Assembly (NCBI GenBank): GCA_965203125.1
Contig: CBDBBL010000018.1
Location: 11,949 to 75,948 of the forward strand
Length of the DNA: 64,000 nt
Direction of reading: 5' to 3'
Source: Gammaproteobacteria bacterium
Lineage (GTDB): Bacteria > Pseudomonadota > Gammaproteobacteria > CBDBBL01
Shown here one piece after another: positions 11,973 to 60,288 of the stretch; within the stretch, counting starts at the first letter, position 1; the number at the start of each line of letters is the position of its first letter. The translations under genes and the position numbers were made by a program. The notes beneath the pieces were generated by a model. It saw nothing but the letters and a program-made list of their open reading frames with translations. It was not told where the DNA came from and did no database searches.

Positions 11973-13243
11973 TCGAATAATTTACCCATCAACGCTAATA
12001 TCTTATAAGCACTGCTAGATACTTTATTCAGATTGTTACGCCAGTGTATAGGAACTGAAAAATAATATGCTATATGAATTGGCCAACAATCTTTATCGAA
12101 CCCCTTCAAATGATTATATGTCGTGTATTGATAATTTTCCCAATACACTACAATCTCTTTCAATTTATCAAGAATGTTGTTTATACTTCGCCGACACAAA
12201 GCCTTACTATAAAATATATGATCATAAAGAGCTTTAACATCTCTAACCTGCAAAATAAACTCTGCATCGCTATTCGCAAACCCTGCTGGCTTGTGCATCA
12301 ATGGATAGTATGAAGGGTATAAATATAAACAACCACCGCTACATGCATAATTACCTTGCTCCCATACTTGCACCAAATCAGGCAAGTGTGATTGCATAAC
12401 TTGAAAGCATTTCAGCAATTCCGACCTAAGCTTATACTGCCTTCTATCGTCGTCACTTAATAATAGGAGACTTCCGTACCGATCAAGAACCTTAGGTGAT
12501 AAGAAATGCTTATCCATACTGCGTTTAGCAAGCATATACCTCGCAGAACGTAACAGCCCCTCGCTCTTGTCATTACAAAAAACTTTTTCCAATCTTTGTT
12601 TTCTCTCGATCAAACTATCAGCACAAATAGGCTCTACACCATGGTTACCTATCAAACATTCAGAGCGCAACCTATCTGTTGCAGGGGATACTGTCAATTG
12701 ACGCAATTCATCTAAAGAAATCTCATCCTTCTTCATATCATCGCAACCAGAGCTACCGTCATTAGCTAGGCAATATTTTAAGCATCTAGATACACAACCA
12801 GTATCTTCGTCAACATACTTCATACGAAAGCAGAAGTATTGGCGACCTGAGGGAGTTGAAATCAAGCCAAGACACTCTACATGCAAACTATCACTCATCA
12901 TATGATCAACGTGAAATATCAAACTAGTACAGAAACACGCTTTTGTTCTTATATTTTGTATCGCAACTTTAAAATTAATAACTTTTAAATCACCACTCTC
13001 CGCAACCTTAAACTTAAAATTCCTTGAAGCTAAACCAGCATGCTGATTACGCTCAACTAGCTTAACCTTAACATTTTCTTCTAACCTTATGATTTTGCGG
13101 CGAATATAACTAACTTCACTATATTCATTTCTCCCAACACTATAGTCAGCTCGATCACAAGATGAACTGCTTAGCAATATAACTGGCACACCCAATTTCC
13201 GCCTATATAAATAGAATCTATTAAAAAAAAAGCTGAACAACAT
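11969..13243 (-). CDS. large Cys-rich orphan protein, hypothetical (ORF track runs to 13396; start probably an internal Met ~13243)
   Basis: Long ORF in an AT-rich tract with no recognisable catalytic motifs. It is convergent with sdaA (4-nt overlap), and the upstream part of the ORF overlaps aspC. Confidence 0.45.
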
Positions 13244-13318
13244 ACCCCCTCCAAAATGAATACATCTACCAATCTTTAAGGTATCATGTACAAAGATAAT
13301 ATTACGAAATGGTGCATT

Positions 13319-14500
13319 ATGACAAGTCTTTTCTCCAAACGAGCTCAATCCGTCAAACCATCCCCAACACTGGCAATTAGCGCCAAAGCCGCTCAATTAA
13401 AACAGGCAGGTCGAGACATCATCTCACTGAGTGTCGGCGAGCCAGATTTTGACACCCCAGAACATATTAAAGTGGCCGCCATCGATGCAATTAAAGCAGG
13501 AGATACCAACTATACGCCAGTTGACGGAACACCAAAACTAAAAGCGGCAATTATCCATAAATTTGCACGTGATAATCAACTCACTTTTTCCGCAAACGAG
13601 ATCATTGCTTCAACAGGCGCTAAACAGGTGATCTATAATGCATTACAAGCACTCCTCAATGAGGGAGATGAGGTAATCATTCCTGCACCTTACTGGGTTT
13701 CCTATCCAGACATGGTTCGCTTGGCAGGTGGCACACCCGTTATCGCACCAACACAGATTGAGCAGAAATTCAAACTCACCGCAACCACGCTAAAACAAGC
13801 TATTACACCCAACACCAAAGCCATTATTGTTAACAGCCCCTCTAATCCAACAGGCCAAAGCTACAACACAAAGGAATTAAGAGAGCTCACTGATTTATTA
13901 AAACAACACCCTAATATTTGGATTATTTCTGACGATATTTATGAACCTATTTTGTGGTCAAAAGAACCTTTCGTGAATCCTCTGATGGTAGAACCACAAC
14001 TCAGAGAAAGAACATTGATCGTCAATGGCGTGTCAAAAAGTTACGCTATGACAGGCTGGAGAATCGGTTATGCTGCTGGTCCTAGCTCATTAATTCAACT
14101 CATGAAAAAAATACAATCACAAAGCACATCAAACCCCAACAGCATCGCACAAGCAGCTAGTGCTGCTGCACTAACTGGTGACCAATCATGCGTCAAGATG
14201 ATGTGTCAGGCATTTCAGCAACGTCACGACATGCTACATCAACAGCTTGAGTCTATACCTGGCATCACCCCATACAAATCAACAGGCACTTTCTACTTGT
14301 TTGTCGATATTCGTCAAGCAATGCAGCAGAAAAACATCAACACAGATGTTGAGTTTGCAAGTGAATTACTGAGCAATGGGGTCGCAGTTGTCCCAGGCAG
14401 TGCCTTTGGCTGTGAGGGTTTTATGCGCCTATCCTTTGCATTAAGCCAAGATATGCTAGATAAAGCTGTCAAAAGAATCGCTGAATTTCTAAGGAGCTAA
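13319..14500 (+). CDS. aspartate/aromatic aminotransferase (class I, AspC-like)
   Basis: PLP aminotransferase class I fold: SLSVGEPDFDTP, NSPSNPTG, SKSYAMTGWRIGY (PLP lysine). Start chosen at MTSLFSK. Confidence 0.85.
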   Translation: MTSLFSKRAQSVKPSPTLAISAKAAQLKQAGRDIISLSVGEPDFDTPEHIKVAAIDAIKAGDTNYTPVDGTPKLKAAIIHKFARDNQLTFSANEIIASTGAKQVIYNALQALLNEGDEVIIPAPYWVSYPDMVRLAGGTPVIAPTQIEQKFKLTATTLKQAITPNTKAIIVNSPSNPTGQSYNTKELRELTDLLKQHPNIWIISDDIYEPILWSKEPFVNPLMVEPQLRERTLIVNGVSKSYAMTGWRIGYAAGPSSLIQLMKKIQSQSTSNPNSIAQAASAAALTGDQSCVKMMCQAFQQRHDMLHQQLESIPGITPYKSTGTFYLFVDIRQAMQQKNINTDVEFASELLSNGVAVVPGSAFGCEGFMRLSFALSQDMLDKAVKRIAEFLRS

Positions 14501-23925: not shown

Positions 23926-24513
23926 TCATTTGTCAATGGAAATATTTTCATCAGAGTCGAGTATATCCACCATCATCGCCGCTTTTAAATATAAAATCAT
24001 TGTCCACACAGTCAGTCCTGCAGCAATATACAATAGAATTGCGCCGATGTACCAGTACCAAATCGACGATTGAGGTGTCACATAAAGCAAAAAACCCAAG
24101 GCAACCATCTGTACAACTGTCTTTAATTTACCTAACCAATTCACCGCCACCGATGCACTTTCACCAATCGTAGCCATCCACTCTCGCAAAGCAGAAACAA
24201 TAATCTCTCTGGAAATAATTGCAATCGCAGGTAAAACCAACCAGTGCCCATAAGGCTCAGCAATAATCATAATCAAAACAACAGCAACAATTAATTTATC
24301 TGCAACAGGGTCTAGAAAGGCTCCAAACTTGGTTTGCATATCTAACTTTCTTGCCAATAGCCCATCCAAGAAGTCAGTGAAGGAAGCAATCGCGAACAGT
24401 ACTACAGCAATCAAATGCGCATCAGCAAACGGCAAATAAAAAGTAATGACAAATACTGGTATTAAGATCACTCTCAACCATGTCAAATACGTTGCCCAGT
24501 TGTGCTTAATCAC
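23926..24513 (-). CDS. pgsA: CDP-diacylglycerol--glycerol-3-phosphate 3-phosphatidyltransferase
   Basis: 195 aa; CDP-alcohol phosphatidyltransferase motif DxxDGxxAR...FLDPVADK; next to tRNA-Gly/Cys as in E. coli. Confidence 0.9.
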   Translation of the reverse strand: MIKHNWATYLTWLRVILIPVFVITFYLPFADAHLIAVVLFAIASFTDFLDGLLARKLDMQTKFGAFLDPVADKLIVAVVLIMIIAEPYGHWLVLPAIAIISREIIVSALREWMATIGESASVAVNWLGKLKTVVQMVALGFLLYVTPQSSIWYWYIGAILLYIAAGLTVWTMILYLKAAMMVDILDSDENISIDK

Positions 24514-25157
24514 TGCTTGCTGCCTCTTTTATGCAACTTTCTCGGAAAGTATTTAACAATCATATTGAGTATTTGTCGTGCCTGCTGATCATCTGCCTTA
24601 ACAGTTACATGTGTCAACAGTAAACCATTACCCATCACGAGAACTTGATATTGTTTAGGTAACCCTCCAACTGTAATGGTATAAGTGCCTGCTTGAATAT
24701 TATCTGCAATAATATGATAAGGTGTTTTTCGTAACGCTTGCCAAATTTGACCATAAGCTTGATACTGTGCTTCATGTAAGACTAGCACAGCCTGCTTCTT
24801 AAGGGTTTGCACCCCTTCATCCCCATAGTCAATCCCGAGTGGCGTCACCACCTTTTTAAAGCCTTGCCACAAGCTTTCGTGTGGCTTCAAATGTATGTCG
24901 TTAGGGACAATCGTCAAGTTTTTTGATATTGCTTTAGGTTGCAATTTGGCAGGAATTGGGTATTGATGGGTTAACTGCGTTCGATCCACACCTAACATAC
25001 CCTGAGCTGGCGTAGCAATTTGATCTTGCAACAAATAATCATTACGACTGGGGTCAATCAACTTATTTTTTCCGTAAAGCGTATTGCTTGAACATGAGCT
25101 CAACAATAAAACCAAGGAAGATAACACCCCAATCAACACACACCTAAATTTCATCAA
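24510..25157 (-). CDS. lipoprotein, hypothetical
   Basis: Signal peptide plus lipobox (LLLSSCSS); 215 aa; no family recognised. Confidence 0.5.
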   Translation of the reverse strand: MMKFRCVLIGVLSSLVLLLSSCSSNTLYGKNKLIDPSRNDYLLQDQIATPAQGMLGVDRTQLTHQYPIPAKLQPKAISKNLTIVPNDIHLKPHESLWQGFKKVVTPLGIDYGDEGVQTLKKQAVLVLHEAQYQAYGQIWQALRKTPYHIIADNIQAGTYTITVGGLPKQYQVLVMGNGLLLTHVTVKADDQQARQILNMIVKYFPRKLHKRGSKQ

Positions 25158-25200: not shown

Positions 25201-26985
25201 CTATTTAGGCAATAACCCTCGACCCCTTCTAAATTTCAAACTTAACTGATATAACTGACTATTTTGATAGACTCTAGTTTGCTCCTCAAAAACCCTCAAG
25301 AAAAGCACATCATCTTCCATACTAGAAAGCATAGTATAGGCAATATGCACTATCTTCGCGTAATTGGATGCCAAGAACCTTCCATCAATCACCAACACCT
25401 CTTTAAGTGTTACATCGCTAGTATCTTTTAAAGAAAGATAATCATCGTGGGACTTATCACTTCTACCACTAAAAGCCTCCTTAATTCTTTGGTGATAGTC
25501 AGGGATGAACTGATGAAAACTGCCATCTCCATTTGGACAGTGTTGAGCTAATGACGCAAATAAGTACACCATCGTCCTCACATCAACTAACAAGGCGTGT
25601 AACATCGCTAGCTCCATGCCATTCAAGACTTCAGAGCGAAAAATCAAATCACAAGTATCCTTCAATCCATCCACCATCTCTCGAAAGTCACCACAAATTT
25701 CATCAGCTCGCTCACGCAATTTTAGATGATATACTTCTTGTGCATCATAAGCAGAAAGCCCATCAGCACCAGAACACCGATAAGATAAATTATAGGCATA
25801 TCCAGTCAAGGCATTACATATATGTAGCAGCGCATCAAACGCATCTTTCTTAAAACAGTTATCACCCAGCGGCTCATGATAGCCAACTTGTAACAACAAC
25901 AATAACTTCTGCTGCAAAACTCTCAAAGCGCTATTTGCACCTGGCGCATGCTCTGCCTGATAAATCCCCCTCCGCCACTCTTGAATGAATTCTAAAAACT
26001 GAACGGCATCACTTATCAACGAAAAAACACTATCTGGAATCAAATCACAACAATCCTCAGCTGGAATGATTTGTCTCGTCAACCACTGTAATTTCGAATA
26101 ATCCCTAGCAGAAACAACCCGTGATGTAACAACTGGTGAACTCAGATCACCAGAAGAAGTCAAGATTAAAGCACTCTCAATCTCTATAATACGCCGAAAG
26201 ATCGGCACCATATATTTCAAAAAATCATTACATACATGACTTACATTCTCTACTCCACACTGATGAGAAGATCCTGACTTCAACACATAACCAACTGGAG
26301 ATGAAAAAGCACTTGGACTAGACTGCATTAACTCAATAAACGGCTCGAACTTGGATTCCTCAAAACACTGAAAAAGACAAAGCCCTTGATTATTTGCAAA
26401 CATAATATTAAACACGTTTCTCACGCTAGAAAATGCCCCTAATCCAAAATCTAACAACAACCCTCGCAGGCAAGAAGCGATAGAAAGTGGATTAACAACA
26501 CCCTCACCTCGATTGGGATCTGCAAGAACCGCTGAAATCGTACCAAAACCAAAGTGGTGCCCACCATGAAAGCAAAAACTAAAAAGATAAAACAGCAAGT
26601 CCACCAAATAATACATGAGCCAATTGCGCTCAAACTCAAGCATAAGAGATGAATTAGAGTGAATAGAGCCTAGAAGCTCTTGAAGATGATGCGACTGCTG
26701 CATTTGCTGCAACCAAACATCTACCGCAGCATTATTGTAAGAAAAGCAGGCTTTACCCCTTGAAAGGCGCTTACTGACATCTCTACTTTTAAATGCAGAC
26801 GGTGCAGACTCTTGCATTGAATAAGCTCTTGCTATGGTAGCCTTAGAAAAAACTTCGCCTGCTGCACAATGATCTTTTGCCACTCTTGCTAACGCAAACA
26901 AATATCCTTCCAAAATGGAATCTGGCAATGTGTGGTATTTAGTAAAAGCACCTTTTTTCGACTTATAACGTATAACTCGCATCAC
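25201..26985 (-). CDS. large orphan protein (594 aa), hypothetical; candidate secreted effector
   Basis: Long uninterrupted ORF with no P-loop, signal peptide or other recognisable motif. Confidence 0.45.
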   Translation of the reverse strand: MMRVIRYKSKKGAFTKYHTLPDSILEGYLFALARVAKDHCAAGEVFSKATIARAYSMQESAPSAFKSRDVSKRLSRGKACFSYNNAAVDVWLQQMQQSHHLQELLGSIHSNSSLMLEFERNWLMYYLVDLLFYLFSFCFHGGHHFGFGTISAVLADPNRGEGVVNPLSIASCLRGLLLDFGLGAFSSVRNVFNIMFANNQGLCLFQCFEESKFEPFIELMQSSPSAFSSPVGYVLKSGSSHQCGVENVSHVCNDFLKYMVPIFRRIIEIESALILTSSGDLSSPVVTSRVVSARDYSKLQWLTRQIIPAEDCCDLIPDSVFSLISDAVQFLEFIQEWRRGIYQAEHAPGANSALRVLQQKLLLLLQVGYHEPLGDNCFKKDAFDALLHICNALTGYAYNLSYRCSGADGLSAYDAQEVYHLKLRERADEICGDFREMVDGLKDTCDLIFRSEVLNGMELAMLHALLVDVRTMVYLFASLAQHCPNGDGSFHQFIPDYHQRIKEAFSGRSDKSHDDYLSLKDTSDVTLKEVLVIDGRFLASNYAKIVHIAYTMLSSMEDDVLFLRVFEEQTRVYQNSQLYQLSLKFRRGRGLLPK

Positions 26986-31157: not shown

Positions 31158-31904
31158 CTAAGAAGCACTTTCTTTTTTAAATGGATTAAAGTCTAGAGAC
31201 ATATTTGTAATATTTGTTTCAGGAATCACCTTGCGTAAAATAATTACTATGATATTAGCAGGAATGGAGCAACCTATCGAAAACAAGACCTTAATCAAGT
31301 AAGAAGTAATAATCATACGCACAAGAGTTGTGTCAGGAAAATTATTATATTGCATTAATAAAATTATAAGGACTGTATAAATCAACTCACCTATTGTTGA
31401 GGAACCTATACTTCTAATCCAAAAATACCTCCCCTTCCAAAGTACTTTCCACTTACTGATCAAATATAAGTTCACCGTACTTGCCACCACATAAGAAAAG
31501 AAAGATGCGAAGCTCATTCGAAGCAATGGAGAAAATACGAAATTATAATGACTTTCTCCTTGCCAATAGGCAGGTGAAGGTAGATTTATACTTATCACAC
31601 AGATAGTAGCAAATAATAGCTGAAAGAAAAAAGCTGCCTGAATCACAACAAATGTATGCTTATAACCGAATAGTTCAGACATTATATCTGCTGAACAAAA
31701 AATAAAGGGCACAATTAACACACCAGCCAAAGTAATTGCTGGATCAAATGCTACTACCTTATTTGTTAAAACAGCAGAACAAAGCACTAAAGTCATATAA
31801 ACCATACTCAAACACGCAAACGCCAAAGTTGGCAGGCTAAGTGATTTTGATTGTATTTTTAACATTCTCATACCTTCTGAAACAACACACCTAACCGAAT
31901 ACAT
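31158..31904 (-). CDS. YhhQ/DUF165-family membrane protein (putative queuosine-precursor transporter), paralog 1
   Basis: Polytopic membrane protein with the family-like segments PFIFCSADIMSELFGY and WIRSIGSSTIGELIYTVL and the C-terminal FNPF motif shared with the paralog at 34063. Confidence 0.6.
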   Translation of the reverse strand: MYSVRCVVSEGMRMLKIQSKSLSLPTLAFACLSMVYMTLVLCSAVLTNKVVAFDPAITLAGVLIVPFIFCSADIMSELFGYKHTFVVIQAAFFFQLLFATICVISINLPSPAYWQGESHYNFVFSPLLRMSFASFFSYVVASTVNLYLISKWKVLWKGRYFWIRSIGSSTIGELIYTVLIILLMQYNNFPDTTLVRMIITSYLIKVLFSIGCSIPANIIVIILRKVIPETNITNMSLDFNPFKKESAS

Positions 31905-34062: not shown

Positions 34063-34779
34063 CTAGTTATCTTCCTCCACAAGCGCAGAAAATGGATTAA
34101 AAGAAACTGTATTACTTGTATAATCAATCTTTTTAACCACCTTTATATAATAAACTATCAGTCCTCCAATTGGAGCACAAATAATGGCATAAATTAATTT
34201 AAGGACATAGGATACTACTAATAAATTAACTATTTGCTTTATAGTCAAAATACCACCAAACCCTAAAGGAAATGCAACTAGCGAATTCACAAGCTCACCA
34301 ACCGCTGATGACCCAATACTTCTTAACCAAAAATAGCGACCAGCTACTAAAAACTTCCATCTTACAATCATAAAAGAATTTACAATTGTTCCTATCCAAA
34401 TCGCAAAAAAACCAACAACCATAAACTTCATACTCATCTCAAAAACCTGATGATATGCTTTAGAGTTATTATAAAAATTAGGAGATGGAATTTGAATCAC
34501 ACCAAACATTAATACAGAAAATATAGCGGCTCCTAATAAAGAATAGAAGATTATTTTTTGAGTAACACGATACCCATATATTTCAGCAACAATATCTCCA
34601 AGAAAAAATATCAATGGGAACACAATTAAACACGCTGAAATTAAGAAGCCATGAATTACAATAATTTTATTGGTCAGCACTAATGATGCTATAGTTGTCA
34701 TGACATACAACACTACAACAAATATTGGCACCTTGACACCTTTTTCAGCTGAGCTTACAAACCTCTTTACTTCATTCAT
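34063..34779 (-). CDS. YhhQ/DUF165-family membrane protein, paralog 2
   Basis: Collinear with paralog 1 (PLIFFLGDIVAEIYGY; WLRSIGSSAVGELVNSLV; C-terminal FNPF). Confidence 0.6.
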   Translation of the reverse strand: MNEVKRFVSSAEKGVKVPIFVVVLYVMTTIASLVLTNKIIVIHGFLISACLIVFPLIFFLGDIVAEIYGYRVTQKIIFYSLLGAAIFSVLMFGVIQIPSPNFYNNSKAYHQVFEMSMKFMVVGFFAIWIGTIVNSFMIVRWKFLVAGRYFWLRSIGSSAVGELVNSLVAFPLGFGGILTIKQIVNLLVVSYVLKLIYAIICAPIGGLIVYYIKVVKKIDYTSNTVSFNPFSALVEEDN

Positions 34780-34914
34780 TTCTAATCTCTCATTTATAAT
34801 AACTCACAGTGATAAACATATCTAAACCCAACAAGAAGCCACTTGAACCCAGTCCGTATTAATCAAAGCTTCAACATAAAAAAGCAGATTCCGCTTGCTT
34901 GCCGTTTCACTTAG

Positions 34915-35000
34915 TCCTTGCTCATTGATTTGAAGCTGTGCTTGTCCGTTGTGGATATTGATTTGCAAGCACCGCTATTGTGAGAACTTTTAGCTTTGCA
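34915..35000. pseudogene. scar: ~65-bp fragment homologous to the internal gp5-domain region of vgrG (compare 37187-37250), fused to half of a subfamily-B MITE core (gcaagcaccgctattgtgagaacttttag)
   Basis: ttagtccttgctcattgatttgaagctgtgcttgtccgttgtggatattgatttgcaagcac is ~85% identical to the vgrG segment ttagtccttgaccatcgatttgaagccgtgcctgtccattgtgaatattgatttgcttgcc. It is followed directly by the B-family central motif. Confidence 0.55.
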
Positions 35001-35148: not shown

Positions 35149-35559
35149 TTATGACATATTGTATTTTTTCATCACTTGCTTACATAAGCGAAACACCACA
35201 TCATACTGCTGGTTAATTTCATCTGTATAAATCGTCACCTCCCAGCAGAATTCATCTAAGGGTCTATGAAGAACCCTAAAAAACTTTAACCCAGGAATAC
35301 GCGGTCTCTCTTGAGCATCTGATGTGATCGTTAAATTTTCAAAGCTTTCTTGCAATACTTGACGCTTATCTATCATTCTATCAAGCCAGCCTTGTAAACT
35401 TTGTTGAATACGTGGTAGCGACCCTGACTTTTTACGACCTAACCCAAGTTCATTGAGCAATGAGTCATCATCCGCACTCATTGCATCAACAGCTTTCTTA
35501 ATTAATGCTATATACCCATCAATTTCTCGTAATAACTCATCCATCAATGTATCTTGCAT
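35149..35559 (-). CDS. hypothetical protein, last gene of the vgrG island (candidate immunity or adaptor protein)
   Basis: 136 aa; separated by 1 nt from the upstream 109-aa ORF; no family recognised. Confidence 0.45.
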   Translation of the reverse strand: MQDTLMDELLREIDGYIALIKKAVDAMSADDDSLLNELGLGRKKSGSLPRIQQSLQGWLDRMIDKRQVLQESFENLTITSDAQERPRIPGLKFFRVLHRPLDEFCWEVTIYTDEINQQYDVVFRLCKQVMKKYNMS

Positions 35560-35560
35560 T

Positions 35561-35890
35561 TTAATTACTCCAATTTGTTTCCATCATTTCTAAATCTTCA
35601 GGGACATCTTGCCATGCCGATGGTACAAACACCTGTGTTTTACCACCTCGTAACATTTCTCCATCAAAGCTTTCTTCAGACAAGTCCTGTGTAGCTGTTA
35701 CACCTTCCCATATTGGAACATCTTCAGGAAAAGTATATGTCACATAATACCCATTGGAATTCCATGGATCGGCGACAGCATAGCTTGCTCTCCATTCCAT
35801 TTTATTTTTTGGCAGTTCATACGCCCAGTATCGTCCATTAACATCATCTTGACGAGCAATTACTCGATACAACGTCGTCCCTTTTGGCAA
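35561..35890 (-). CDS. hypothetical protein in the vgrG island (candidate toxin domain or immunity protein; TTG start in the ORF track)
   Basis: 109 aa, acidic C-terminus; tightly coupled to the downstream 136-aa gene. Confidence 0.4.
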   Translation of the reverse strand: MPKGTTLYRVIARQDDVNGRYWAYELPKNKMEWRASYAVADPWNSNGYYVTYTFPEDVPIWEGVTATQDLSEESFDGEMLRGGKTQVFVPSAWQDVPEDLEMMETNWSN

Positions 35891-35956
35891 AACTTTCGGG
35901 GTTGGCTCCCCTGAAAAATTGCCTCAACTTTCTCTTTCAGCAACTTCCTTGAGTAC

Positions 35957-36370
35957 TTAAGCTGATTTACTTCTAAACTGCATCACCCACAAAATTACAG
36001 CCAATACCATAACAGTAGCAAGTGATAAAGCGGATATGCCTGAAAAAAAACCAAGCGCGGAATCTGGAGCAATTAGTTGGTTTGGTAGAGTTTTCATTAT
36101 CATATTAAAATATGAAGTAAACGGGTTCACTACGTACGAATAAACAGAGCCAATGATCAATGTCAACATAACTCCGTTTGTTTCTTTACGCCAACTGAAA
36201 AATAGCACCAATAAGAAGGGAGAAAAATATTCCACATTGTTTAACAATATGGATCCCCAGTAATGCCACCCAAAAGTATGCATTATATCAATACTACCAT
36301 AAATTCCATATAGCAGGCATAACGACATTAAGATTGATATACAATTGAAAATATAGTTTTTCATCTTCAT
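35957..36370 (-). CDS. small polytopic membrane protein immediately downstream of vgrG (candidate immunity protein)
   Basis: 137 aa with about 4 TM segments; starts 9 nt after the vgrG stop. Confidence 0.5.
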   Translation of the reverse strand: MKMKNYIFNCISILMSLCLLYGIYGSIDIMHTFGWHYWGSILLNNVEYFSPFLLVLFFSWRKETNGVMLTLIIGSVYSYVVNPFTSYFNMIMKTLPNQLIAPDSALGFFSGISALSLATVMVLAVILWVMQFRSKSA

Positions 36371-36379
36371 CAGTAACTC

Positions 36380-39211
36380 CTATACAACAATTAATGCACC
36401 TAGAGCAATTTCATCAACAACAGGTAATAATTCTTTCCCTATAATAGCAACACTCGAGATTACGGCACTTAATTGAATACCTTTCCAGTTAGATTTTACT
36501 AAGCTTTTTGCCGATGTTTTTTGTAACATTATAGGTGGGATGTGATCTTTATCTTGCGGTTTAAGTGTAGCGGAAAATGCTATATCACCACTAATTTTCC
36601 AACTGTCAAAAACTTTGTCTATGGATGTTGGAGATGCTATAAAAACTAGATTATACCCAACCATTGTAATACTATCACTAACAAATTCCCCAGTAACTTT
36701 ACTACCAATCATTAACTGCTCATGACTAGTCGGTCGCAATGTCATCCCTGAGAAAAAATCACCCAACATATTCTTAGCCGATATTTTATACTGATTTAGA
36801 ACAAGTTTGCCAGCGGGATGCGTCCCTTGTTTTTGCAAACTCATACTACCAGACAAGGTTGTCTTATAGATGTATGGCTTATCTTCAAAAACAATCACAC
36901 CAGTCACTGGAGAAATCACACTCAACTCTAGTGATAGCACAGGAAACAGATTCGTCAATACTGTTGAGGCAGGTTTCAACTTTAGATCACCTACACTTAA
37001 ACTGGGCAATACACTCAACGATGGGGACGAGGACAGCACGGAGGCTTCCGCAGCCTTCCCTTGCCCACCTAAATTCATTTTACCTTGGGCATTACCTTGA
37101 GCAGACACCGCTTTTTGTGTATTCGTCAGCGGTTCTCCTCCACTGATTTTCCCGATCACTTCCACTTGGCTGCCGTTAATGGTTAGTCCTTGACCATCGA
37201 TTTGAAGCCGTGCCTGTCCATTGTGAATATTGATTTGCTTGCCTGCTTGTAGCCAGTGGTTGAGGTCACTGAGTATCGATAGGTTTCCTTGGTCTGCACT
37301 GACAATCAGGTTGCCCTGCTGGCTGTCCATACTGATTCCATCTCCAGCAATGATTTGATGATTTTTCTCAATTTGATGTTGTAGTTGCTGTTTGCTGATT
37401 ATCGTACTATTTTGCTCGCTCCGTTGGCTAATGTCTTTGTTTGCCACGCTGTGTTGACTACCTTTTTGACTCACTTGACTTGCATCACCTTCTATCGCTA
37501 GTTGATGTTGTCCCTTCGCTTGTTGTATGAAGTTATTTTCGGTTGTTGTGATGTGGTTTTGTTGCGCTGTTTCAGCCAGTGTGCCTTGTGAGGTCTTGAG
37601 CATAACACGATGTTGTTGTTCATTCGCATCGAGTTGTATTTGATGTTGTTTTTCTGCTGTCTGTAAGGTTATTTTGCTTTTTTTACTGTGATCATCTAAA
37701 CACAGTTGATGTCCACTTTGGGTTTGCAAATGATGTTGGTGTCGATTTTTTTGTGTCACCACACTATGTTGTTGTGAATGAGGAAAGGCGCCGAGTATGA
37801 TGGGGCGATTGGCATTACTGGCTTCAAAATCCACTAGTACCGTTGTACCTGTTAGCAAGGAGAGGTGTTTGCCGTGATTCGATCCATGATGATCCATGAG
37901 GTGACGAATACCACAGCGATCTGCCCCAATTCGCTGTTTGTCCTCATCCTCTTGTAATTCAAGATAATAATGCCCCTGCTCAGTGAGTGAAGCACTTGTC
38001 TTCATCGCATGAATGTTCCCCCAAGCATTACTGGAGTTCTTCGGCTGTTGTTGTGGCATCATTTGATAACGTTGTTCTGCCTTAATCATCGTAAGCTGGC
38101 TACAATCATTGCCACGGTTGGCTTGATGGTCAAGATCTGCATCGCTACCTTGCTGGCTCAACCCAATTAAACGCCATGTGCCGTTGATACTGAGCGTCGG
38201 GCAAGCTTCTATGGTGATTAAGCTACCCATGGGTAAATTAAGGCAATTTGATTTTGCAGTCAGTTGCTGGGCTTGTGTTTGGTGCGCGCGTTGATAGTTT
38301 CCAGCCAGTTGTTCTCCTTGTTTTTTGTCGATGTAGTCACTGCCATAAATCACATTTTTCGAGTCACTGGTTGAGACGTTTTCTTGTTTGTGATTTTTTT
38401 CTTGATGATTGGCTGTTAAATCAACATGAGGTCGTGAGAAGTGTGTTTGATGAAGCTGAGTTTTTTTTGGTAACGTATCGATTTGTCGACTTTGTATATC
38501 CCAAATACTTGGGGTAATTTTTTCATGGTTAGCCGCAAGGTCATTCGAGTTGATAAACCATAAGCTTTGTGATCGATCATTAATCGGCTGGTCATTGAAC
38601 CATAGTTCAAAATAATCGGCAAAATGGCGACAGTAAAAGACAATGCCGTGATCAGCACAAATACGTCGTAAAAAATCATAATCAGATTCATCAGCTAACT
38701 GTGTTATCAAGTCTTGTTGCCAATCACTATGGGTTATTTGAAAGTGTGCCTGCGCCTTTAATAGTGGATAATTGCTCAATACCTGCTGAATGATACTGCT
38801 GATCGTTTGATTAACAAAAGTACGGTGGTAGTTGCTATCTTTTAATAGTCGCAGTGGTGATTTGATACTGACGGCGTAATGAATACCTGATTCAGTTGTC
38901 TCATGGGGATCCAGTGTGACTTGAGCAATCATACCATGATAGTAAGCCTCAGGTTGACCGAAGGTTTCTAAGTGAAACACAGCATAAGATGACAAGTATT
39001 CTTGAAGCTGTTGCAATGCAATAGGATGTTGCACACACAGTGTTAGCTCAATGGCATAATCTGCAGAGATTTCTTCGTTGCAGAGTTTAAATTGACTAAC
39101 AGGATACGTCGATTGATCAATCTTTAAGCTTGCTTTCATCTTTGTACTTTGGCAAAGTTCTTTCGCCTGTACAATACTGGAAATCACGCTATAGCTAACA
39201 CGGTTAAGCAT
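36380..39211 (-). CDS. vgrG: type VI secretion tip protein VgrG with a ~250-aa C-terminal extension (evolved VgrG)
   Basis: gp27-like N-terminal region (…YHRTFVNQTISSIIQQVL…) and the gp5 OB-fold signature TVLVDFEASNANRPIILGAFPH (compare the canonical EVLVDFLEGDPDRPIITG). A long extension ends in a hydrophobic tail. The true start may be MKASLKID at ~39139. Confidence 0.8.
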   Translation of the reverse strand: MLNRVSYSVISSIVQAKELCQSTKMKASLKIDQSTYPVSQFKLCNEEISADYAIELTLCVQHPIALQQLQEYLSSYAVFHLETFGQPEAYYHGMIAQVTLDPHETTESGIHYAVSIKSPLRLLKDSNYHRTFVNQTISSIIQQVLSNYPLLKAQAHFQITHSDWQQDLITQLADESDYDFLRRICADHGIVFYCRHFADYFELWFNDQPINDRSQSLWFINSNDLAANHEKITPSIWDIQSRQIDTLPKKTQLHQTHFSRPHVDLTANHQEKNHKQENVSTSDSKNVIYGSDYIDKKQGEQLAGNYQRAHQTQAQQLTAKSNCLNLPMGSLITIEACPTLSINGTWRLIGLSQQGSDADLDHQANRGNDCSQLTMIKAEQRYQMMPQQQPKNSSNAWGNIHAMKTSASLTEQGHYYLELQEDEDKQRIGADRCGIRHLMDHHGSNHGKHLSLLTGTTVLVDFEASNANRPIILGAFPHSQQHSVVTQKNRHQHHLQTQSGHQLCLDDHSKKSKITLQTAEKQHQIQLDANEQQHRVMLKTSQGTLAETAQQNHITTTENNFIQQAKGQHQLAIEGDASQVSQKGSQHSVANKDISQRSEQNSTIISKQQLQHQIEKNHQIIAGDGISMDSQQGNLIVSADQGNLSILSDLNHWLQAGKQINIHNGQARLQIDGQGLTINGSQVEVIGKISGGEPLTNTQKAVSAQGNAQGKMNLGGQGKAAEASVLSSSPSLSVLPSLSVGDLKLKPASTVLTNLFPVLSLELSVISPVTGVIVFEDKPYIYKTTLSGSMSLQKQGTHPAGKLVLNQYKISAKNMLGDFFSGMTLRPTSHEQLMIGSKVTGEFVSDSITMVGYNLVFIASPTSIDKVFDSWKISGDIAFSATLKPQDKDHIPPIMLQKTSAKSLVKSNWKGIQLSAVISSVAIIGKELLPVVDEIALGALIVV

Positions 39212-39279
39212 GAATCATGTTAGCTATACAATGAGCTACTCAGGAACTGTCAGAAATTAAGTTAACAAGCGTTGCTCAC

Positions 39280-40071
39280 ATGAAACACTTCCACCCAAAG
39301 AAAGCCCTTCTTATGCTTTGCCTGATTTTCAGCACACCCTGTTTTGCTATGGAAAAACCAACTAACATTATATTCGATGCATCACTTGCAAACAGTCCCA
39401 TTAAGGGGTTTGTACAAACTCCTATCGGCGGCACCCCAGGCACATCTAGCCCAAATCGCCCAACATTGACTGAGCTAGGTATCACCCACCAAAACATGGG
39501 CAACCTCAACCTGCAAGCAAACTGGAAAGATACCTTTGGGTTTATTGGAATACAGCTGAACCAAATGAAGCATACCTCAACATTGCAACAAGCTTTAATG
39601 ACACATGGCGTACTTATTCATATTGGCACCACTATTCATAGTAAACTTAAGTTCAACTTATATCACATCGGTGGTGGCTACCAATTTCACCCCACGCATC
39701 ACTTAACACTTTCACCCACTGCCATACTAACAGGCATGCGATTCGATTATGAAATTGCATCTTATATCACCCCAAGACGTTATAACCATTATACGCTGGA
39801 ACTCGGCGCTCAAGCACGTGAGCAACTGACTGAAAAAACCGCGATACTATTCGAGGGCGCGTTCTCCTCCCCTGGATTTAATGAGCTTAATGTTAAGTCA
39901 GCGAAGATGAAACTATCACGGCAAATTTATCAGCATCAAGGTATCAGCAGTTCAATTTATGCAGGACTGGGGGTCATGTCATTAGATTTCAAAGACACAC
40001 AGCCAATGCCAAACCATCTACATATCAGCACAGGTATGCAGTGGATTGCTGGCTTTAGAGTATCAGTTTAA
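39280..40071 (+). CDS. secreted protein, probable outer-membrane beta-barrel (hypothetical)
   Basis: Signal peptide MKHFHPKKALLMLCLIFSTPCFA; alternating amphipathic strands; aromatic-rich C-terminus. Divergent from vgrG with a 68-bp gap. Confidence 0.45.
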   Translation: MKHFHPKKALLMLCLIFSTPCFAMEKPTNIIFDASLANSPIKGFVQTPIGGTPGTSSPNRPTLTELGITHQNMGNLNLQANWKDTFGFIGIQLNQMKHTSTLQQALMTHGVLIHIGTTIHSKLKFNLYHIGGGYQFHPTHHLTLSPTAILTGMRFDYEIASYITPRRYNHYTLELGAQAREQLTEKTAILFEGAFSSPGFNELNVKSAKMKLSRQIYQHQGISSSIYAGLGVMSLDFKDTQPMPNHLHISTGMQWIAGFRVSV

Positions 40072-41053: not shown

Positions 41054-41222
41054 AGATTGACACTAGCTGCTTCAACAAAATGCTATCTGCAAATACGCTG
41101 GATACAGTCACTGCAACGACACCTGCAAATACTAGCGCAAGCAGTAGCGCAAATCCATTAGATTTCTGATTCATACAGCAATTACCTGCTGCCATTGCTG
41201 GCCTCCAAGCATAAACTGCCAC
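41010..41222 (-). pseudogene. remnant of a pilin-like small protein (MNQKSNGFALLLALVF…) whose 3' end is replaced by MITE A2
   Basis: Prepilin-like hydrophobic N-terminus without the conserved Glu5. The C-terminal codons read into the MITE. Confidence 0.35.
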
Positions 41223-41758
41223 AACACCCAGTGTATATTACGCCACTCTTTCACAGTGCTTGCGGTTTCAAAATCAAGATGACCCGCTGTTACTATGCCA
41301 TAAAGAAATTGCAATCTTGTCACGTCAAATAGATGAATCACTGCGTGCGAATGCAGGTGGTTCATCTTAAAATACAAAGCAGTTTTATGTCCTGAAATAG
41401 AGGTTTTACCCATATAAGCGTAAATAGATTGCCATTTTCCTTGCACACAAAGCGGTAACAATACTTTATTATTTGAGAAATTCATTGAACTAACACCATG
41501 AACAACAGGCTCACCTTGTATGCGACAACTTGAATGTTGTGATAATTGCTTTAAATAATGACTCAATAACATCACATCTTGCAAAGAAGTATTGTCTTGA
41601 TTAATTTTGCCAACTTGCTGAAAGACCTGAACACTGAGTGAAGTGATTATCAAAAAGACAATCACACTCAACATCATAGCAACCAGCAGCTCGAATAAAG
41701 TATGACCACCCTGAAACCTAATATTACACATGTAGCTCAACCTGTAGTTTGCCAGCAC
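41171..41758 (-). CDS. type IV pilus minor pilin, PilW-like (prepilin N-terminus GHTLFELLVAMML)
   Basis: Class III signal/pilin N-terminal motif G-x-T-L-x-E-L-L-V followed by a hydrophobic helix. Confidence 0.5.
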   Translation of the reverse strand: MLANYRLSYMCNIRFQGGHTLFELLVAMMLSVIVFLIITSLSVQVFQQVGKINQDNTSLQDVMLLSHYLKQLSQHSSCRIQGEPVVHGVSSMNFSNNKVLLPLCVQGKWQSIYAYMGKTSISGHKTALYFKMNHLHSHAVIHLFDVTRLQFLYGIVTAGHLDFETASTVKEWRNIHWVLWQFMLGGQQWQQVIAV

Positions 41759-42029
41759 GCAAATTTATCTGACAACTACCATTCCAGCACTCACACTGTT
41801 GCACCTTAACCAGCGATGGAACTACTTGTGTGCTTATACCACAAAAATTGTTTGGCATGTGGGCATGAATACCATCAATACTCAGCTCAGCCATATTAAG
41901 CATCAACTTTTGTCGTGCATCAATTTGATTATCTTGTGACTTCAGCAATAATACATCCGCACTTTCTATCGAAAGCGTAATAATGATTACAGCAACTATG
42001 ACTTCAATTACAGAAAAACCTAACAACAC
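41724..42029 (-). CDS. type IV pilus minor pilin, PilV/FimT-like (MLLGFSVIEVIVAVIII)
   Basis: Prepilin cleavage/methylation motif GFSVIEV at the N-terminus; 101 aa. Confidence 0.5.
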   Translation of the reverse strand: MLLGFSVIEVIVAVIIITLSIESADVLLLKSQDNQIDARQKLMLNMAELSIDGIHAHMPNNFCGISTQVVPSLVKVQQCECWNGSCQINLRAGKLQVELHV

Positions 42030-48675: not shown

Positions 48676-49797
48676 TCAATTTACCACCAAGTCTCGACCC
48701 AACCAATGTTGCGCCACTTCCGCACCTCGGTAAGGTGGCATCACCGTGTTCTTTGATACCTCTGGCTGCCAACCCTTTTTCGCAAGAAATATTGCCGTTC
48801 CACGCTTTTCACTGTACGCACAAGCACCGAACGTAGAGATATTCCAGCGGTATTTTTGAAAAGTTTCAAAATCAAACTGATGCCTTTTCATACCTTTTAT
48901 ACTTGGCTGCCAACCTTCTAGCTGAAAAAAAGTATCAGGCTTACCTTGCCAAACGGTTGTCGGGCCAATTAAAAACGACAATAAAAAACCATCGTTTTTC
49001 TTTGCACTTGACTGATTGATACGCAGATAATTGCTCGAATGCAAATTAACCGCCAAAGTGTAATGGGAATTACCTAGATTATGATGTTGATCACGCGACA
49101 ATTGCTGCCGAAACGATCTCAAAAACCCCGACCTAGATCGATCCTCAACATCTCTGACCACAAAATGTCCGCCCAAGAGAAATAATTTCAGAAACTCCCT
49201 GACATTAACATCCGAGTTATCGTTGATACCTAAAGCGTTTGAAGATGTCGAGGATTTAACATAATGAGTTTGAGCAGAATCAAATTTACAGAATGGCGCA
49301 ATAGCACCGCTATTGCGAGAGCTTGTAGATTTGCATTCTGACAAACTCATGCCGTTAAAGTTCGGCGTCTTCAAGTGCTTTGGGTATAGAGATAAATCAT
49401 AATGTTGGTAACCTAAAATACGATAAGTTGGAGCAGCTCCTGATTTACCCACATATTCTAGCTGTGGTTTATACATCACTAACTTATGCTCAATCACATA
49501 TCTCTTAATAAATTGGATAAGTGCCCTATCCTTACTATTTGTTCCCTCAGGCGTTTTCCCATTCCAAAGCTCAACCAAATAATCTAAAGTACGATTGAAA
49601 TTCTGCAACGAATAAACAACATGATCACTTCCTTGCTGATAAATACTGTCCTGATAACGATCTAAATTACGCACACCCTGCTCAAAGAGACTATTAACAT
49701 ATTGATTTTTATTACTCAAAGAAGCATCAAGATTCACAATCGAGGCCTGACTAAGTGCAAAACACCCCATCAATAACACACCAATAAAAGCCCTCAT
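48676..49797 (-). CDS. secreted hypothetical protein (signal peptide) carrying an in-frame 55-aa MITE-encoded insert
   Basis: Signal peptide MRAFIGVLLMGCFALSQA. The internal segment LYPKHLKTPNFNGMSLSECKSTSSRNSGAIAPFCKFDSAQTHYVKSSTSSNALGI is encoded by MITE B2. Confidence 0.5.
   Translation of the reverse strand: MRAFIGVLLMGCFALSQASIVNLDASLSNKNQYVNSLFEQGVRNLDRYQDSIYQQGSDHVVYSLQNFNRTLDYLVELWNGKTPEGTNSKDRALIQFIKRYVIEHKLVMYKPQLEYVGKSGAAPTYRILGYQHYDLSLYPKHLKTPNFNGMSLSECKSTSSRNSGAIAPFCKFDSAQTHYVKSSTSSNALGINDNSDVNVREFLKLFLLGGHFVVRDVEDRSRSGFLRSFRQQLSRDQHHNLGNSHYTLAVNLHSSNYLRINQSSAKKNDGFLLSFLIGPTTVWQGKPDTFFQLEGWQPSIKGMKRHQFDFETFQKYRWNISTFGACAYSEKRGTAIFLAKKGWQPEVSKNTVMPPYRGAEVAQHWLGRDLVVN
49225..49389. 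mobile_element. MITE copy B2, in frame inside the CDS 48676-49797
   Basis: …gcgtttgaagatgtcgaggatttaac…gcgcaatagcaccgctattgcgagag…gttcggcgtcttcaagtgctttgggtatag. Confidence 0.8.
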
Positions 49798-51355: not shown

Positions 51356-51613
51356 ATGACTGAACGCATCCACAAAATACGGCAATGTCTTGAAACATCT
51401 TTAGCACCAGAACAGCTACATATTGAAGATGAGAGTGACCAACACATTGGACATGCAGGTGCGAAATCTGGTAGAGGCCACTTTGCCCTCACCATTAAAT
51501 CCAAACAGCTATCGAAACAAAATAAAATAAAAGCACATCAAATGATCTATCATGCGCTCGGAGAGCTAATGAACACAGATATTCATGCCTTACGCATTAA
51601 GATTGAAAAGTAG
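51356..51613 (+). CDS. BolA-family protein (YrbA/IbaG-like)
   Basis: 85 aa; BolA signature …DESDQHIGHAG…HFALTIKS…. Confidence 0.8.
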   Translation: MTERIHKIRQCLETSLAPEQLHIEDESDQHIGHAGAKSGRGHFALTIKSKQLSKQNKIKAHQMIYHALGELMNTDIHALRIKIEK

Positions 51614-52103
51614 TCAATATCAATTCTTTGGTATTATATAAGTTATAATACGTCCCATCAAAAAAGAAATGAAACATACCCAAGAAAAAACCAATCATTA
51701 GCAACAGCATTATCACACCTGAAATCACACCATAAAAAGCCCACCTCTTCTGCACTCGCTGGAATTCCTCAACACTGCCCCAATGTTTATTCCTCCACGC
51801 CCAAACACTGCCTCGACTGGCTAAGACAAAGGGTATTATCCAACCAATCACAGGAATGAAGCATAGGATGCTCAGGTAAACATTATTACCCAACCCCCAA
51901 ATCCACGTTAGCATGAATGCACCCCAATTCCATTTGCGAATTTCAGGAGGAATGGTTGAGAAATCACCTTTTCCTGAAATATATTCATCGCCTTTAGGAA
52001 TATCAGTTTTCAACGACTTCCTATCTATACCCAGCGCAGTTGAAGATATCGAGTTTTTATCAAAATGATTTTGAGTAGCATTGAATTTAAAAAACCGAAT
52101 CAT
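51597..52103 (-). CDS. small membrane protein, hypothetical; the N-terminal ~30 codons of the ORF are encoded by MITE B4 (the real start is probably internal)
   Basis: Three TM segments in the C-terminal two-thirds. The N-terminus (…NSISSTALGIDRKS…) matches MITE-encoded peptides seen elsewhere in the window. Confidence 0.4.
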   Translation of the reverse strand: MIRFFKFNATQNHFDKNSISSTALGIDRKSLKTDIPKGDEYISGKGDFSTIPPEIRKWNWGAFMLTWIWGLGNNVYLSILCFIPVIGWIIPFVLASRGSVWAWRNKHWGSVEEFQRVQKRWAFYGVISGVIMLLLMIGFFLGMFHFFFDGTYYNLYNTKELILTTFQS

Positions 52104-58647: not shown

Positions 58648-60288
58648 TTAGAACCTGTAAAAAACAACTGGGTTTCTTGCAGGGTCAGGGTGATAAACAT
58701 TCATAAAATCAAGCATTGTGTATGATCCTTGCTGGTAGCACATTGCATCACATGAACATGCTTCTGGTCTTTGATAATGCCTCTTAACATAAGCTAACTT
58801 CATCGGCAGGTTTTGCAAAATCGACTCCATCTCTCTTAAGTGCATATTCACACCTCGAATCACGATTTCTTGTGTTAATCTAAATCGTTTACAAATCTTA
58901 CACAACGGTTCAAATAAAGCATACAGCTGCGCCCACTGGATCAATGTCGAAGTTGTCAAGATTAGATCAACACGATAACTTTGATCACTCTGCTTATCTA
59001 ATGGATCAAAATAATACAACTCTGCCGATTTAATCAAGTCACCTAACTGCATTCTTAAGATCTGCGTGATACTATTTTCTGACACAATCGGCGCATAATC
59101 AAGTGGTAAGATTCTAAGTTTGACCAGTTGCTTACGTAAAGCAAACAGTGAAATTAGCTTTGCTTGAGGGTTCAAAGCGACAGGAAGCTGCTTTAAATTG
59201 TGTTGCTTAAATTTATCCATCGAATAGTAACAGTGGATACTCTGATCAGTTGCTGTTTTTACCTCAACAAACGCAAACTTTTTTTGATGGGTTAGCACCT
59301 CATGGGTTAATAACCTACCTGATTTATCAAACAAACAAGGTGTCATCTTACGACCAGCCCAGTACCCATAACCATATTCAAAACCCAATTGCTCATATTG
59401 CTCAATATCCCTTAAAGCAATGAAGCAATACACGGGAATACCATTAACAGGTACAGATATAAAAGTTAAATTTGCCCAAGCAACATGTTGATGCTGCTGC
59501 ACCCGTGATGAAAAGCTAAAATACTCGCTTGAATTTAATCTAAAATCAGCGTTTTGACGAAACATATATTGTGCATATTGTTCGTAACTGATTGCACTTG
59601 TTGCCGGAAAACTGTTTTGTGCATCAGTTAGGAAATAACCATCGGCAGTATATTTGAACATGGCAGGCATTTGCTCAGGATGCTGGTGATAACGATTGAG
59701 CCTTTGCAAAGCGTCATCTTGATTATTCGGCATATGTTGTATAAATCTTGCCAATCCACCAATATCTTTCGCACTAATATGGGAATCAGCAGTTCCTCCC
59801 AGTGGATAGTCGTCTCCAGTTGATATCGCACCTAACTGATGTAATCCTGCATAAGTTAAAACCACTTCACCTGCTCGAAATTTTCGATTGGCAAATAAAC
59901 CACACCCAACTCGATCATCTATCTTTGCGACAATAAAATCATCCGAAGGGGATTGACATAAACGAACAGACACCAATCGTTGTAAGTCTCTATCGAACGC
60001 TTGTGGTGGTAATTCCATTTCTCTATCGATTTGAGGTGTCACCCATGTGCTTTCTGAGTATTGAAAGTGATGTATCACCTCAAGCCTTGATACTGCTGTC
60101 CTAGTAATTCTACTAGGAATAATCGGTACCTGATCCATTGTTAATACATAGTCAGAACTAGCACTTTTCACACGATCTATATTCACATGTCTTCTCGAAG
60201 TAGTCACAATGTTTGCCGATTGAACAATACGCTGTGATGATTGATGAGAACGGCGATATTTTTTCTTAGCTTTGCGACCCATAGGCAT
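58648..60288 (-). CDS. SET-domain protein (putative protein lysine methyltransferase; eukaryotic-like effector candidate) with a basic NLS-like N-terminus
   Basis: Three SET signatures in order: GxG region VGCGLFANRKFRAGEVVLTYAGL; NHSC-like ARFIQHMPN; ELxFDY-like EQLGFEYGYGYW. The N-terminus reads MPMGRKAKKKYRRSHQ. No secretion-system signal recognisable from sequence. Confidence 0.5.
   Translation of the reverse strand: MPMGRKAKKKYRRSHQSSQRIVQSANIVTTSRRHVNIDRVKSASSDYVLTMDQVPIIPSRITRTAVSRLEVIHHFQYSESTWVTPQIDREMELPPQAFDRDLQRLVSVRLCQSPSDDFIVAKIDDRVGCGLFANRKFRAGEVVLTYAGLHQLGAISTGDDYPLGGTADSHISAKDIGGLARFIQHMPNNQDDALQRLNRYHQHPEQMPAMFKYTADGYFLTDAQNSFPATSAISYEQYAQYMFRQNADFRLNSSEYFSFSSRVQQHQHVAWANLTFISVPVNGIPVYCFIALRDIEQYEQLGFEYGYGYWAGRKMTPCLFDKSGRLLTHEVLTHQKKFAFVEVKTATDQSIHCYYSMDKFKQHNLKQLPVALNPQAKLISLFALRKQLVKLRILPLDYAPIVSENSITQILRMQLGDLIKSAELYYFDPLDKQSDQSYRVDLILTTSTLIQWAQLYALFEPLCKICKRFRLTQEIVIRGVNMHLREMESILQNLPMKLAYVKRHYQRPEACSCDAMCYQQGSYTMLDFMNVYHPDPARNPVVFYRF

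Follow-up and report, generated by a model that had tools for sequence, protein, structure and literature searches.

The 64-kb window analysed here (64,000 nucleotides of contig CBDBBL010000018.1 of a Gammaproteobacteria bacterium, assembly GCA_965203125.1, positions 11,949 to 75,948) carries a small vgrG island on its minus strand. This island consists of four genes. The vgrG gene (36380-39211) encodes a specialised, or evolved, VgrG spike protein of 943 amino acids (aa). It is followed by tm137 (35957-36370), which encodes a 137-aa protein with four transmembrane (TM) segments, by p109 (35561-35890; 109 aa, TTG start), and by p136 (35149-35559), which encodes a soluble protein of 136 aa. The island is probably, but by no means certainly, an auxiliary (orphan) vgrG polymorphic toxin-immunity island, in which the C-terminal domain of VgrG would target membranes, the tm137 product would confer immunity, and p109 and p136 would form an orphan module. 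Judged from sequence, the C-terminal domain is a candidate membrane-targeting toxin of an uncharacterised family, and the tm137 product is a candidate for its cognate immunity protein. An earlier note on this DNA had listed four minus-strand open reading frames (ORFs) of these sizes, with a gap of 9 nucleotides (nt) between vgrG and tm137 and of 1 nt between p109 and p136, and the coordinates and the sequence agree with it. It had also described a VgrG with a gp5 signature and a hydrophobic end to an extension of about 250 aa, followed by a 4-TM protein, and had compared the whole to an evolved-VgrG/immunity architecture. The results below bear out each of these points.

The extension starts where the similarity to known VgrG modules ends. 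A weak match to DUF2345 (19.3 against a cutoff of 30.7) covers residues 541-680 of VgrG, so that about 250 residues lie beyond the β-helix. The β-helix is connected to the C-terminal domain by a Ser/Gly/Ala-rich linker (36962-37141, minus strand; approximately residues 691-750). This linker contains 20% Ser and 10% Lys, is not conserved among the relatives, and had a predicted local distance difference test (pLDDT) value below 50 for the part modelled with AlphaFold2 (AF2). The C-terminal domain (36383-36961, minus strand; residues 751-943) is composed of a β-rich core and a hydrophobic helical tail (36383-36478, minus strand; residues 912-943). The earlier note had allowed that the extension might be the common DUF2345/transthyretin (TTR) tail of VgrG proteins. 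The DUF2345 signal is confined to residues 541-680, and no Pfam or NCBIfam model matched residues 700-943. A known toxin, a DUF2345/TTR tail or an adaptor was not found for the extension in Pfam, NCBIfam, PADLOC or PDB; sequence and profile matches in PDB were at chance level, and plasmids contained no match.

An exhaustive HMMER search with residues 700-943 identified 12 relatives among 1.84 billion representatives, with identities of 28-45%. The homologous region of this family is about 190 residues long. A profile scan of metagenomes added no further contig. The region is carried by proteins of several kinds. In five other VgrGs (775-935 aa) it forms the very C-terminus; it also occurs in a Tox-PAAR-like protein, in a LysM protein, and in short stand-alone proteins, the gene for one of which comes immediately after that of a 639-aa VgrG. 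Next to the PAAR-like member (locus L042) are genes for Tae4 and DUF2169, and the LysM member (locus L039) adjoins the 3′ end of a VgrG gene and an Rhs gene; going by these neighbours, both stand in type VI secretion system (T6SS) contexts. On these comparisons, the extension is a discrete and rare family, and not a DUF2345/TTR tail.

The domain is closely coupled to a membrane protein. In 10 of the 12 loci, the window included, it is followed by a gene for a predicted 4-TM protein of 126-147 aa, and these proteins form one homologous family. The gap between the domain and the TM gene is 4-45 nt where the TM gene is complete and 105 nt in L047, which is cut by a contig end; two copies are cut by contig ends. 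The tm137 gene has an AGGAG Shine-Dalgarno sequence and an ATG start, and its product shows four hydrophobic maxima. It is 28.6% identical to L044_134 (E = 4e-14). A hidden Markov model (HMM) of the TM family recovered members that had not been used for its training, namely those of L045 (E = 3e-10) and L047 (E = 8e-5). In L044 it also recovered an additional copy that carries a frameshift. This unannotated third copy of the 4-TM gene (L044, 16188-16672) is situated some 3 kb downstream from the VgrG cassette; its two pieces gave E-values of 4e-11 and 8.5e-4 with the HMM, and it looks like an orphan immunity pseudogene. The TM family had no relative in Pfam or PDB and no detectable similarity to a known immunity family. 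Adaptors had been named in the earlier note as another possible identity of the small ORFs. No family of Pfam, NCBIfam, PADLOC or PHROG was matched at E ≤ 0.001 by tm137, p109 or p136, and this includes the adaptor families DUF4123, DUF1795/Eag and DUF2169.

Three of the related loci contain tandem orphan modules. In L043, a tandem orphan module consists of a 92-aa fragment of the domain and a second TM gene. In L051, a fragment of the domain tail with a TM gene precedes a VgrG end with the domain and a TM gene. In L049, a 3′ fragment of vgrG is accompanied by a different C-terminal module and a TM gene. As Rhs, CDI and T6SS loci show, polymorphic toxin-immunity systems are recognised by a combination of diverse delivery modules, a partner gene that is closely linked and evolves fast, and orphan arrays. 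The varied carriers of the domain, its linked partner gene and the orphan arrays therefore lead to the reading as a polymorphic toxin-immunity island. The motifs and the topology of both the domain family and the TM family are kept across distant lineages.

Furthermore, the island is flanked by direct repeats. A 56-nt segment of vgrG (37183-37238), which encodes the last turns of the β-helix, recurs at 34911-34966 in the same orientation with 88% identity (blastn E = 2e-14). Copy 1 lies inside vgrG on the minus strand, at approximately codons 659-676, and reads QINIHNGQARLQIDGQGL; it would mark the upstream recombination boundary of the cassette. Copy 2 lies downstream of p136, likewise on the minus strand, where it reads QINIHNGQAQLQINEQGL in frame, and a terminator-like hairpin (34882-34896) comes after it. 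The 2.27-kb block between the repeats comprises the linker, the domain, tm137, p109 and p136. In L049, 710 nt of the vgrG 3′ end are directly duplicated around the domain and TM cassette (1578-2287 and 3333-4042; 99.86% identity), and an older module is displaced downstream. This identity of 99.9% means that the cassette was duplicated recently. In addition, the domain is more conserved (35-45% identity) than the cores of the VgrGs that carry it (22-30%). The repeats of the vgrG 3′ end and this difference in conservation point to installation of the cassette by homologous recombination. It is concluded from these comparisons that the domain, tm137, p109 and p136 form a single recombination cassette, which would have been installed in the conserved vgrG 3′ end and would have displaced the previous one. 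Copy 2, as judged by its identity to vgrG, is the displaced remnant of this older 3′ end, now reduced to 56 nt.

In Rhs, CDI (contact-dependent growth inhibition) and auxiliary vgrG clusters, orphan arrays of toxin and immunity genes are known, and so is the displacement of cassettes. As in those arrays, the newest cassette lies between direct repeats of the delivery gene's conserved 3′ end, and older modules or fragments are displaced downstream. The present island differs in that the displaced remnant is just 56 nt long and in that the repeats enclose the orphan p109 module instead of preceding it. The 56-nt repeat in the window and the 710-nt repeat in L049 together provide a clear example of cassette replacement at the vgrG 3′ end. 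For vgrG-linked auxiliary clusters of Ralstonia, exchange by homologous recombination has been discussed (PMC11481896). It should be mentioned that downstream of the second copy in L049 there is a 190-aa protein, which has no Pfam match and is accompanied by its own 4-TM gene. This protein may be a second, unrelated toxin on the same immunity-protein scaffold.

The p109 gene has recognisable relatives. A tblastn search of p109 against plasmids (7.3 Gb) gave 102 records, which comprise 93 Ralstonia megaplasmids, six Rahnella, two Tritonibacter and one Paraburkholderia records. The best matches had 36.5% identity over 98% coverage (E = 6e-7). In these alignments, p109 corresponds to the C-terminal ~110 aa of T6SS-cluster proteins of 493 aa (Ralstonia) and 486 aa (Rahnella). 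The gene for the Ralstonia protein, a hypothetical protein, is located directly after tssK, tssL and vgrG, and that for the Rahnella protein is located within a tssB...tssE cluster. Such proteins of Ralstonia solanacearum megaplasmids (for example AXW63987.1) and of Rahnella aceris pPlas2 (WP_200227866.1) share with p109 approximately 35-37% identity and the motifs G..LYRVI, WN.NG.YVTYT.P, WEG and GG..Q. Unlike them, p109 does not have the N-terminal region of about 370 residues, which contains hydrophobic segments; the corresponding upstream space is occupied by tm137. These ~490-aa proteins are uncharacterised and have no Pfam or PDB match.

The start of p109 is also unusual. TTG codons are the only available starts and the Shine-Dalgarno sequence is poor; in the source record, the gene is annotated as 103 aa from a later TTG. 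The homology to the ~490-aa proteins runs upstream of the TTG into in-frame codons, until a stop codon at 35924-35926 (11 codons upstream). The homology upstream of the TTG and the poor start signals suggest that p109 is probably a 5′-truncated, orphan C-terminal domain of a toxin. The earlier note had seen no recognisable toxin family in any part of the island and had taken the 109-aa ORF as a novelty standing by itself. The first statement holds for the extension, tm137 and p136; for p109, both statements give way to the relationship with the Ralstonia and Rahnella proteins. A read-through from tm137 into p109 was considered and rejected: both are in the same frame, and two stop codons lie between them. 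Sub-threshold matches of p109 to LtfC (Pfam, E = 0.0037) and to PHROGs were set aside. In the word-indexed protein search p109 found itself alone, the metagenome scan gave nothing, phages gave no meaningful match, PDB sequences gave chance-level matches only, and PADLOC gave nothing. The single-sequence AF2 model of p109 was too poor for use (pLDDT of 39.6).

In contrast to p109, which has the poor start described above, p136 has a GGAG Shine-Dalgarno sequence and an ATG start located 1 nt past the p109 stop codon. By its position, p136 is a putative retained immunity gene for p109, and p109 itself would be a relic or orphan copy of a C-terminal domain from a different toxin. No homolog of p136 was found in Pfam, NCBIfam, PADLOC, PHROGs, PDB or plasmids, so that it is regarded as an ORFan, and the other loci of the domain family contain no counterpart of p109 or of p136. 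At L054 6966-12416 (Ralstonia) and L055 6972-11558 (Rahnella), the genes of the ~490-aa proteins are followed by two to four tandem paralogous genes for proteins of 280-350 aa, to which p136 is unrelated. The Rahnella genes are annotated as 'ImpA', are 75-80% identical to one another and distantly related to the first Ralstonia gene. None of the tandem genes of either genus has a Pfam match, and they have the appearance of an array of immunity genes. The vgrG upstream is broken into two overlapping ORFs in Ralstonia strain SL3022. An assignment of the Ralstonia ~490-aa protein to the Ssp4 family was rejected: the Ssp4 paper deals with a different, all-helical protein and does not contain these genera. 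According to a pangenome atlas of Ralstonia, clusters of toxin and immunity genes linked to vgrG occupy precisely these variable parts of the main T6SS locus (PMC11481896). If our interpretation holds, the ~490-aa proteins encoded at the T6SS loci of the plant pathogen Ralstonia solanacearum would, through their link to p109, be a likely family of effectors.

The C-terminal domain itself was modelled with AF2 on the family alignment, which is shallow (12 sequences). The core was predicted as β-rich with a pLDDT of about 90. No significant fold match to it was found in PDB or BFVD. The invariant residues of the family are limited to L, G, Y, W, G and G, and none of the conserved residues is of a catalytic type. 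The tail contains two short hydrophobic segments of about 12-14 residues around a conserved polar G...ED motif. This lack of a catalytic-type residue and the hydrophobic tail (residues 912-943) together suggest that the action of the domain is directed at membranes and is not enzymatic. Neither in sequence nor in fold was the domain similar to Ssp4, Ssp6, Tse4, VasX, Tke5 or colicin pore domains.

A mechanism can be proposed from these features. A T6SS encoded elsewhere in the genome would fire the VgrG trimer, and the domain, borne on the tip of the trimeric spike, would thereby reach the periplasm of a neighbouring cell. The hydrophobic tails might then insert into the inner membrane and cause pore formation or depolarisation without enzymatic chemistry. 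The tm137 product, made from the same operon, would neutralise the toxin in the membrane of the producer itself and in those of sister cells. A further step would be to regard the domain as the founder of a new class of T6SS weapon, with a new fold presented as a trimer on the spike tip, tails that insert into a target membrane (the bacterial inner membrane or that of a host), and a 4-TM family that blocks them within the bilayer. This bolder version is considered unlikely at present.

Several points weigh against the toxin-immunity reading. The tail is split into two short segments by the polar G...ED motif and was modelled with low confidence (pLDDT of about 50), which makes its membrane insertion a conjecture. 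The TM gene is missing downstream of the domain in L039 (LysM) and L042 (PAAR-like), the most distant and GC-rich members. T6SS core genes are absent from the 20-29-kb contigs of three relatives and, as the earlier note had said, from the window, in which Pfam found no core family in any of the 48 ORFs of at least 150 aa (shorter ORFs outside the island, for example a possible PAAR, were left out). Lastly, the best sub-threshold fold matches of the domain point to phage tail terminator and tail completion proteins (E = 3e-3 in PDB and 2e-3 in BFVD, with some probabilities up to 0.99), and not to toxins.

This last result raises the possibility that the domain serves the spike as a module for structure, docking or membrane anchoring, such as a tail-terminator-like cap or a platform for cargo, and that the 4-TM protein is a cargo mini-effector or an assembly factor. 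The absence of conserved catalytic residues would be compatible with such a role, and the PAAR-like member is followed by Tae4, a bona fide effector family, instead of a TM gene. However, the TM-scores of these matches were not higher than 0.3 and the root-mean-square deviations exceeded 10 Å, so that a fold match with tail-terminator proteins is not established. Free-standing orphan fragments, each with its own TM gene (L043 and L051), are unexpected for a docking module, and so is the swapping of the domain together with the TM gene as a cassette. Moreover, a polytopic 4-TM protein would be hard to load on a cytoplasmic spike without a chaperone, and none of the Eag/DUF1795 type was found in Pfam or NCBIfam. 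A structural or docking role is thus regarded as rather unlikely, and the interpretation as a toxin with its immunity protein is preferred.

The VgrG core is genuine but very diverged, as far as profile and sequence searches can tell. Pfam Phage_GPD (PF05954) matched residues 46-357 with E = 6.4e-35, and the gp5 signature TVLVDFEASNANRPIILGAFPH begins at residue 457. The score against NCBIfam TIGR01646 (135.7 bits) was above the cutoff of 121.8, whereas that against TIGR03361 (147.4 bits) was below the cutoff of 186.35. In a word-indexed search of 5.8 billion proteins this VgrG was nearly unique, with a best non-self homolog of 25% identity, and no close relative was found among the contigs of GTDB species representatives. 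A 16-nt inverted repeat (39190-39228; 88% complementary, 7-nt spacer) spans the start codon annotated for vgrG and might serve as an operator or fold in the mRNA; Met24 is a possible alternative start.

Such divergence would also fit a decaying relic, in a genome from which a working T6SS has disappeared, or in which there never was one, and with a vgrG cassette that no longer functions. The orphan state of vgrG here and in the three relatives with 20-29 kb of context, the TIGR03361 score below the cutoff, and the apparent truncation of p109 are consistent with this explanation. A precedent is on record in a related order, where one genome is described as having a degenerate T6SS and three orphan VgrGs. 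Nevertheless, the ORF of 943 codons is intact, and tm137 and p136 have good ribosome-binding sites. The conservation of motifs and topology in both families across distant lineages, and the recent, 99.9% identical duplication of the cassette in L049, also speak against decay. Auxiliary vgrG clusters normally sit away from the core T6SS locus (PMC11481896). Decay is therefore considered quite improbable. Some Legionellales have T6SS genes and orphan VgrGs on record, which gives a precedent for the vgrG gene of this window.

A target other than a bacterial membrane has to be considered as well. The domain might act on the membranes of a eukaryotic host by insertion or fusion, in keeping with an intracellular, amoeba-associated lifestyle, and tm137 might then protect the producer from the hydrophobic tail or handle this tail within it. 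The C-terminal domain of Burkholderia VgrG-5 has reportedly been proposed to act on eukaryotic host membranes, and a trimeric spike tip with hydrophobic helices may recall fusion machinery. The setting also looks host-associated: the window encodes a SET-domain protein, an SDR with homologs in Candidatus Berkiella, and several large ORFs without a family (all described below). On the other hand, no similarity to VgrG-5 or to any anti-eukaryotic domain was detected. The one-to-one coupling to a fast-diverging membrane protein, the orphan modules and the cassette swapping are hallmarks of interbacterial toxin-immunity systems. An action on host membranes is thus very unlikely, and an interbacterial toxin with the tm137 product as its immunity protein remains the preferred reading.

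The proposed organisation can be compared with that of known systems. Specialised VgrG effectors with adjoining immunity genes, such as VgrG3/TsiV3 of V. cholerae and VgrG2b of P. aeruginosa, are encoded at loci away from the core T6SS genes. As in these proteins, a gp27/gp5 core is followed by a putative effector domain after the β-helix, and the next gene is the candidate immunity gene. Unlike them, the present domain has no sequence or fold similarity to the described VgrG extensions, appears to be non-enzymatic and carries a hydrophobic tail. As immunity candidate it has not a periplasmic protein but a polytopic one of the membrane. Pore-forming colicins are paired with immunity proteins of three or four TM segments, and the immunity features of colicins and ionophoric CdiA-CT toxins offer a second comparison. 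A presumably membrane-active, hydrophobic and helical C-terminal element, with a small polytopic inner-membrane protein encoded directly downstream, would be common to these systems and the present one. They differ in that sequence or fold similarity is absent, the hydrophobic element here is shorter and comes after a β-rich core, and delivery would be by a T6SS spike. Ionophoric CdiA-CT toxins are listed in PMC11630599.

The closest analogy with experimental support comes from Serratia marcescens, in which the pore-forming T6SS effector Ssp4 is paired with the 4-TM inner-membrane immunity protein Sip4, and the location of the immunity protein generally reports where the effector acts (PMC12669606). 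Ssp4/Sip4 and the related Ssp6 resemble the proposed system in three respects: a non-enzymatic, membrane-targeting effector, a small inner-membrane immunity protein with four predicted TM segments, and a small insertion among housekeeping genes. Ssp4 is, however, a free and mainly α-helical cargo protein with 13 helices (PMC12669606), whereas the present domain is β-rich, fused to VgrG and unrelated in sequence. In summary of these comparisons, the domain and TM families are new and rare, as far as the databases searched can tell, and the logic of their organisation is standard for T6SS auxiliary clusters. If the interpretation is correct, the T6SS repertoire would gain two new families, one of toxin domains and one of polytopic immunity proteins. 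Reports of new T6SS toxin families are regular; this one would stand apart as non-enzymatic, fused to the spike and without an assigned structure. The domain core, which has neither a recognisable solved homolog nor an enzymatic signature, would provide a compact model of spike-borne membrane attack. Legionellales-like bacteria, which are host-associated and little studied, would moreover be seen to retain T6SS toxin cassettes and to exchange them actively.

The surroundings of the island consist of housekeeping genes according to the Pfam scan, and the GC content of the window is 40%. Differences in GC and in GC at third codon positions (GC3) between the island and the rest were small and inconsistent. 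The idea of a compositionally foreign island was therefore rejected, as neither GC nor GC3 marks the block as foreign. The product of a neighbouring short-chain dehydrogenase/reductase (SDR) gene has homologs with 60-66% identity in uncultured Gammaproteobacteria and in a metagenome-assembled genome of Candidatus Berkiella, without synteny or the island proteins. A SET-domain protein of 546 aa (58648-60288, minus strand) contains a SET domain of the eukaryotic type (PF00856, E = 3.5e-8). Its resemblance to Legionella effectors that are histone methyltransferases hints at a life in association with a host. On the grounds of the SDR homologs, the GC content of 40% and the SET-domain protein, the host is termed Legionellales/Berkiella-like, and it is probably a gammaproteobacterium of this kind.

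Directly downstream of the island lies one of two paralogs of the Vut_1 family (putative vitamin/queuosine-precursor transporters; 34063-34779, minus strand). The other is located at 31158-31904 on the minus strand, and a racemase gene and an unannotated 185-aa ORF sit between the two. A Vut_1 gene is also found after the VgrG and TM pair in L046 and near that of L044, with identities of just 27-33%. On the other side, a 263-aa ORF (39280-40071, plus strand) is divergent from vgrG and begins 68 nt from the vgrG start. Its product has a signal-peptide-like N-terminus and a β-rich sequence and might be a protein of the outer membrane; Pfam, PHROG and PADLOC gave no family for it.

Five further ORFs, all on the minus strand, have no Pfam family: 11969-13396 (475 aa), 24510-25157 (215 aa), 25201-26985 (594 aa), 48676-49797 (373 aa) and 51597-52103 (168 aa). 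Their products could be specific to the lineage or similar to effectors. About 110 nt are shared between the 475-aa ORF and the start of a convergent aminotransferase ORF. Two adjoining small ORFs at 41171-42029 on the minus strand, also without a Pfam match, encode proteins whose hydrophobic N-termini are of the kind that characterises type IV pilin-like (minor pilin or pseudopilin) proteins.

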